A DNA stretch of 64,000 bases from Amphiscolops sp. MND2022 (lineage: Eukaryota). The translations under genes and the position numbers were made by a program. A model generated the notes under the pieces. That model was given only the letters and a program-made list of their open reading frames with translations. It searched no databases and was not told the origin of the DNA. Shown here in pieces: positions 40,529 to 40,975 of this stretch. The stretch lies in the NCBI GenBank assembly GCA_964187785.1, contig OZ076409.1, positions 65,474,001 to 65,538,000 of the forward strand, in the 5' to 3' direction. Positions within the stretch are counted from its first letter, which is position 1; each line of letters starts with the position of its first letter.

Positions 40529-40975
40529 CTACGGGCGGGTAGGTTGAAATATGACGATTTGCACATTCGAATTTGAAAAAATGTGATATAATAAGGAAAA
40601 AACAGTCGGCCAATGTAATTTATCATAGCCACTGCCAAGTCTTGGAATGGCAATTTCGCGAATGTTATTTCGTTCCATATGAGACTTCATGGCTAGAAGG
40701 CTCATTTGAAGGGTATCGTAATTAGAACGATGAAAAAATTTTCGTTTTGTGACTAGATTGTAAATAAATTTTTTCGTTGAATGATCAAAATATGCAATCA
40801 ATGATCCCGGTGGAGGTCTCGTAGTAGTCATTTTGTGCAGATTTTGAAGCGCTGGATAGTGCCGGGTTACAGCAGCTGCTAAGCCTGTATGATTCGCAAA
40901 ATCAGAAGAACCACTATACGCAAAGGATGAAACTGTAGAAAGAATATGTGATTGAGAAAAACAGAATTTTGGATA
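40529..40975 (-). other. TARG1/OARD1 (Poa1p-like) macrodomain at the Pol C-terminus
   Basis: FIYNLVTKRK...YDTLQMSLLAMKSH...IAIPRLGSGYDKLHW closely parallels human TARG1 YIYYLITKKR...YENLQKSLEAMKSH...LSMPRIGCGLDRLQW (TARG1 sequence recalled from memory). Confidence 0.9.

Follow-up and report, generated by a model that had tools for sequence, protein, structure and literature searches.

Background

The macrodomains of coronaviruses, alphaviruses and bacterial DarG serve as ADP-ribose erasers in host conflict, and it was the viral ones that revealed PARPs as antiviral. The human macrodomain protein TARG1 (OARD1, C6orf130) strips ADP-ribose from the acidic residues of proteins, from nucleic-acid ends and from thymidine, reactions for which Lys84 is required (PMC7050489, PMC8501950). 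Its catalytic pair is described as Lys84 and Asp125 (PMC9411070), the second residue being given as Glu125 in a paper that also places the enzyme in the DNA damage response (PMC7050489).

Among retroelements, LINE-1 is reported to be restricted by ZAP/PARP13 (PMC4441479, PMC4423928), and the endogenous retroviruses of teleost fish have an occasional gene for a macro domain protein (PMC4977317, citing Basta et al. 2009); the initial annotation of the locus described here had mentioned that macro-like domains have some precedent in retroelements. The fish elements likewise are retroelements with a captured macrodomain, but they belong to Retroviridae and carry it in additional ORFs, whereas here it lies in frame in a Ty3/gypsy Pol (PMC4977317). 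The "ancient errantiviruses" share with our element the LTR-gag-pol-env organization, recent copies and, in some of them, a domain C-terminal to the integrase, which in their case is a chromodomain; the available part of that paper mentions neither macrodomain, ADP-ribose nor JmjC, and in its supplement "macro" occurs in species names among the matches listed (4/10) (PMC13524379). An orchid Ty3/gypsy element with a functional AlkB m6A demethylase ORF (PMC9289625) and fusions of transposable elements with chromatin readers (bioRxiv 10.1101/2021.11.30.470311) likewise show a host eraser and host readers captured and retained by an element, with different chemistry, and the available parts of both papers report no macrodomains in elements; those of four further papers (PMC8120803, PMC6431247, PMC7729036, PMC9967889) hold nothing on retroelement macrodomains. 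Within the literature searched, with subscription journals, Repbase and CDD lying outside it, we found no paper on a TARG1-type domain in Ty3/gypsy Pol. Gypsy proteins are at times annotated with such a domain in databases. Macrodomain capture by retroelements has precedent, and the TARG1-class domain fused to Ty3/gypsy Pol is a variant of it; what sets it apart is its repeated occurrence in lineages distant from one another, an active site graded from canonical to dead, the JmjC co-cargo and the helicase-PARPs of the host.

Structure of the element

The element occupies 14.5 kb of the window, the 64,000-nucleotide stretch of the Amphiscolops sp. MND2022 genome that was analysed, and is bounded by identical LTRs and a 5-bp target-site duplication, GGTGG (33866–33870 and 48391–48395). 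The 330-bp 5' LTR (48061–48390, minus strand) matches the 3' LTR (33871–34200, minus strand) at 330/330 bases. Directly inside the 5' LTR is a primer-binding-site-like stretch (48047–48060, minus strand) starting with TGG, a start also found beside several related LTRs, and a polypurine tract lies at 34201–34209 (minus strand). The genes gag, pol and an env-like gene are on the minus strand; pol is separated from env by two genes in antisense orientation. The open gag frame (46036–47313, minus strand) encodes a C-terminal zinc knuckle (zf-CCHC, E 0.0095, under the cut-off). Pol is an uninterrupted frame of 1884 aa (40529–46183, minus strand) comprising protease, a dUTPase-like segment, RT, RNase H, integrase, a linker and the macrodomain; Pfam identifies RT (525–690), RNase H (755–887) and integrase (1098–1266), with weak matches to protease (E 0.054), dUTPase (E 0.11) and the integrase C-terminal domain. 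The LTRs, target-site duplication, primer-binding site and polypurine tract, and the PR-RT-RH-IN order (with the protease match weak) are those of Ty3/gypsy elements; Pfam finds no chromodomain after the integrase at E up to 1, so the element does not classify as a chromovirus.

The env-like gene (34541–36877, minus strand) encodes a signal-like N-terminus, RTRR followed by a hydrophobic stretch, and a C-terminal hydrophobic segment, motifs that fit a class I fusogen; it matches nothing in Pfam or the PDB, and its product may be an F-type fusogen. An env-like gene lies downstream of pol in 8/8 related elements for which the 3' part was available. The element is a young, intact, env-carrying Ty3/gypsy LTR retrotransposon. 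Gag finishes with a slippery heptamer, A-AAA-AAC (46039–46045, minus strand), at which a shift into the -1 frame of pol presumably occurs; the heptamer is present and the -1 frame open in 16/16 elements examined, so that translation probably yields the macrodomain as the C-terminal end of a Gag-Pol protein. No stable hairpin was found within 60 nt downstream of the slippery site.

Identity of the macrodomain

Past the integrase, Pol runs through a low-complexity linker of about 246 aa (40976–41713, minus strand; Ser 14%, Pro 12%, Thr 9%, Ala 8%) into a C-terminal domain of 148 residues (40529–40975, minus strand, the residues themselves being encoded by 40532–40975), in one frame and much as the initial annotation had described it (a Pro/Ala/Ser-rich linker leading into about 148 aa). 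That annotation had assigned the domain to the TARG1 class, and both searches bear it out: the best PDB match by phmmer is human TARG1 (E 2.2e-16), followed by the DarG entry 5m31 (E 3e-5), and TARG1 is also the top structural match. The Pfam Macro profile by itself stayed below its cut-off (17.5 versus 22 bits, E 0.004); the atlas gave Macro/OARD1-like clusters at 0.92–0.93. The AlphaFold model, built on a 17-row alignment (pLDDT 86), superposes on TARG1 (PDB 4J5Q/4J5S) with a TM of 0.87 and an rmsd of 1.5 Å (Foldseek E 1e-13); TARG1 occupies Foldseek ranks 1–8 and DarG ranks 9–12, followed by Poa1p and, at TM 0.70–0.75 and far below TARG1, the viral macrodomains. The domain belongs to the ALC1-like (TARG1/DarG) macrodomain class, closest to TARG1 and DarG rather than to MacroD.

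The proposed retention of the catalytic pair holds: in the phmmer alignment Lys77 of LVTK (40745–40747) and Asp118 of GYD (40622–40624) pair with Lys84 and Asp125 of TARG1, at the same spacing of 41 residues. The equivalents of Ser35, Thr83 and Gly121/Gly123 are kept as well, the diphosphate loop Gly-x-Gly-x-Asp being present as LGSGYD. DarG is of the same class and has the catalytic lysine too, but the dyad Asp kept by this domain is missing from it (PMC7050489). The N-terminal ADP-ribose loop is diverged, and the loop sequence quoted for it proved to be as written: against the family consensus His-Cys-x-Ser-x-Asp-x-x-Met, the Ser, the Asp and a following Gly are retained, and the His, Cys and Met (equivalents of His32, Cys33 and Met40) are replaced. 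Differing from human TARG1 also in its fusion to Pol and with 25% identity to it, the domain has the Lys/Asp pair and diphosphate loop of a TARG1-type hydrolase and an altered first loop, and it may bind or hydrolyse ADP-ribose.

Active-site variation and selection

Active-site residues were counted in 244 domains that span the columns of the motifs, 14 of the window subfamily and 230 others, a set collected by similarity and hence biased to intact domains, with dead copies under-sampled. In the window subfamily the Ser, the Asp, Thr-Lys and Gly-x-Gly-x-Asp are present in 14/14, the first-loop His and Met in none of the 14, and the first-loop Cys in 11/14, the window copy being one of those without it. 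Among the other domains Lys is found in 223/230, Asp in 227/230 and the first-loop His in 219/230. The canonical first loop is kept in most relatives. Because the window subfamily nests among canonical-loop domains in the tree, the change of the first loop is derived. In the macrodomain protein SCO6735 a His-to-Tyr change unfolded the protein (PMC9411070), at a site that, judging from motif spacing, may correspond to that of the lost first-loop His.

Pairwise dN/dS (Nei-Gojobori, 22 non-independent pairs in all) shows the macrodomain to be under purifying selection: in 4/4 comparisons of the window copy with close relatives it has a value of 0.12–0.17, against 0.39–0.41 (about 0.40) for the linker in the same four comparisons and 0.04–0.06 for the integrase core. 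The C-terminal catalytic half is at 0.04–0.11 and the N-terminal half at about 0.3, versus 0.11–0.32 in canonical relatives, and relaxed selection on the N-terminal half is possible; small-count pairs in subfamily A3 reach 0.3–0.5. The fold and profile match and the purifying selection run opposite to what had been named as speaking against the assignment, a missing profile match or relaxed selection on a domain without activity. Within single pairs (window pol versus L043, L045, L047 and L062) synonymous divergence differs several-fold among Pol domains, for example 0.15 in RT and 0.85 in the integrase tail, which indicates module exchange between subfamilies.

A sister subfamily has lost both the catalytic Lys and Asp, with the fold kept and the frames open. 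It includes three copies that are nearly identical, two of them with frames of 1948 aa, and in three of four elements checked the LTR pairs are 100%, 99.7% and 99.5% identical (no LTR pair was found in the fourth). Its macrodomain dN/dS, 0.23–0.43, is near its linker value. The recent insertion of this dead-site sister means that catalysis was unnecessary for recent insertion. The initial annotation had covered neither this sister nor the subfamily-specific loop change, nor the antisense JmjC-fold gene described below.

Placement in distant lineages

The 1.07-Gb host genome yielded 1355 candidates; scoring was done for 150, and the macrodomain was matched in 150/150; with the single open frame, this rules out an artefact or a chance fusion. 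From 30 stretches or pairs picked across identity bands, four being duplicates, 26 distinct elements were obtained, the counts of which are not frequencies. The macrodomain follows the integrase in 22/26 (lineage A), lies between protease and RT in 2/26 (lineage B) and between RNase H and integrase in 2/26 (lineage C). The RTs of lineages B and C are about 25–29% identical to that of the window, and an integrase tree (13 rows, quick method, with a long-branch warning) separates the three lineages. The macrodomains of lineage A form a supported clade (96/90) in a tree of 69 rows. In AU tests, made on a quick tree of 48 rows after 21 long-branch or redundant rows were dropped, none of the groupings A+B, A+C, A+B+C and all element domains together was rejected (p 0.58–0.68), which would be compatible both with one capture and with several.

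Lineage B is large: it includes L055 (domain at 7945–8382), L079, the database protein P0122 and many near-identical frames of 1853 aa, and database clusters of proteins of this type have 415–854 members. The best protein-database matches are mostly assembly proteins close to the elements of this genome. In one database protein (P0007), a Gag, three macrodomains stand in tandem and become progressively less intact, and L130 resembles, to the eye, a Gag tail followed by a macrodomain. Between the RNase H and the integrase of a Gypsy Pol from another source (P0085) lie an intact and a dead macrodomain (1040–1171 and 1303–1440). Among viral and metagenome contigs, many of them short or prokaryotic, an integrase-like neighbour was found at 1/132 macrodomain loci. 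In a distant Gypsy lineage (L095 2017–2982, L096 7217–8182) the macrodomain, which is frameshifted, separates RNase H from integrase, and the terminal repeats, at least 4.3 kb long and 99.45% identical, contain a JmjC-like gene.

Antisense cargo and host PARPs

Between pol and the env-like gene, beyond degenerate tandem repeats of about 182 bp (39719–40291), lies an ORF antisense to pol (38496–39536, plus strand), the product of which ends in a basic C-terminal tail. It has no Pfam match and sequence profiles give it no name, the match to KDM7 having an E-value of 0.094 (atlas, 0.92–0.95). In its structure model (pLDDT 84) the top Foldseek matches are TYW5, KDM7A and PHF8 (E 2e-7 to 1e-5, with a TM of only 0.3–0.4), and TYW5, FIH and JMJD5/6 appear among the fold matches at similar E-values. 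The modelled double-stranded beta-helix, the H-x-D/E…H triad and the 2OG-binding Lys are those of the JmjC fold of 2-oxoglutarate/Fe oxygenases, to which we assign the predicted protein with the global TM low; His173-x-Glu175…His249 and Lys190 are invariant in 18/18 aligned copies. The gene has 116 matches in the host genome and a dN/dS of 0.11–0.56 (5 measurable of 6 pairs); it occurs in some subfamilies and is absent from the close relatives L046 and L048. JmjC-fold genes are co-carried in several lineages; in L053 a different JmjC-like antisense ORF was recognized by motif judgement only. The second antisense ORF (37232–37540, plus strand) encodes 102 aa, probably a small membrane protein, with a hydrophobic N-terminus, a core of conserved Cys and Trp residues and a further hydrophobic segment; its position is conserved, with only 28–48% identity among relatives, and it evolves faster than the flanking genes.

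The host genome has 32 PARP-domain matches. Five of the eight long PARP frames examined are fusions to a ZNFX1/UPF1-type helicase, and the others are one with WWE, one with CCCH fingers and one tankyrase-like; His, Tyr and Glu residues stand in catalytic order in 3/3 regions read. The five long single-frame genes with a ZNFX1/UPF1-type helicase and one or two PARP domains (L119–L123) are candidates for an RNA-sensing ADP-ribosyltransferase family.

Possible functions of the Pol macrodomain

The explanation we favour, holding it to be about as probable as all its competitors taken together, is that the macrodomain is an optional counter-defence enzyme that strips the ADP-ribose of host PARPs from element proteins or nucleic acid, or in this loop-altered copy at least binds it. 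After the -1 frameshift, Gag-Pol would carry the macrodomain as its tail; packaged, it would travel with RT, integrase and genome, and the long linker would let it work apart from the integrase. The opposing enzymes would be among the long-frame PARPs of the host, several of them helicase-fused, and a conditional benefit would allow subfamilies to retune the active site, as in that of the window, or to lose it, as in the sister. A domain that is independent of position, has its catalytic pair most strictly kept and can lose it without transposition stopping points to a packaged accessory enzyme of conditional benefit, and the position independence, as read from the sequences, would fit one. 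Against an eraser stand the absence of the first-loop His and Met from all 14 window-subfamily domains, with the SCO6735 result, the possible relaxation in the N-terminal half, and the recent insertion of the sister without the catalytic pair. The counter-restriction of PARPs suggested in the initial annotation is plausible, with circumstantial support from the host helicase-PARP fusions, the link between host PARPs and the elements being itself circumstantial, and with the dead-site sister against it.

The same annotation had also considered a tether to ADP-ribosylated chromatin: the domain would be a reader that anchors the integrase there and guides insertion in the manner of chromovirus chromodomains. 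This has in its favour the position C-terminal to the integrase in 22/26 elements examined, the chromodomains at this end of Pol in some errantiviruses (PMC13524379) and the dead-site versions that retain the fold in open frames. It is weakened by the roughly 250 low-complexity residues separating the domain from the integrase; a pure reader would have no need of the catalytic pair, the most conserved part of the domain; other lineages carry it before RT or integrase or on Gag; and four complete target-site duplications, together with that of the window, show no common motif. The variable placement and the recent insertion without an active site favour an optional accessory over a tether dedicated to that task like a chromodomain, and we regard the tether as unlikely. 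Decay of a once-active captured enzyme, kept in the window subfamily for fold stability only, we consider about as unlikely: the first-loop His and Met, lost as a derived change, the absence from the window copy of the Cys kept by 11/14, and the sister's lost dyad and near-linker dN/dS would agree with it, but the low dN/dS of the C-terminal half and the invariant Thr-Lys and Gly-x-Gly-x-Asp would not, and one stop codon could remove a useless terminal domain, yet the frames reach the domain end. Improbable, in our estimate, is a role in repair, in which the enzyme would clear PARP1/2-type ADP-ribose from cDNA ends or from the gapped integration intermediate and so complete integration. TARG1 does act at the termini of nucleic acids and takes part in the DNA damage response (PMC7050489), and fusion to Pol would put the enzyme at the integration site; against this, the dead-site relatives inserted recently and the JmjC-fold co-carriage in several lineages resembles conflict cargo. 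Most LTR elements integrate without a macrodomain, which also speaks against such a role.

That selection keeps a TARG1-class domain in several mutually unrelated Ty3/gypsy lineages of a single genome suggests that PARPs fight retrotransposons, as they do viruses. Natural reagents for a test exist in the candidate host PARPs and in a small soluble domain that occurs in canonical, loop-altered and dead-site form. A wider conjecture, speculative and in our view less likely than not, is that animals defend themselves against LTR retrotransposons by ADP-ribosylation, a defence that would have gone unrecognised and would be mounted in this host by an expanded family of helicase-PARP fusions. Ty3/gypsy lineages would answer it with a portable kit, a TARG1 eraser that can be inserted at any Gag-Pol joint and, against methyl marks, a JmjC oxygenase. 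Insect errantiviruses have one or two "pseudo-RNase H" domains between RNase H and integrase (PMC13524379), the place of the two macrodomains of P0085; in this conjecture they might be a worn remnant of such a macrodomain, a testable re-reading of an unexplained domain of their Pol.

On the coding strand the LTRs of the window element end in TG…CT and not in TG…CA (33871–33872, 48061–48062), as do those of its relatives. The element is embedded in repeat-rich DNA, with repeats on both flanks (25008–25168 and 53900–54058) and a weak DUF659 (transposase-like) fragment at 29733–30236.
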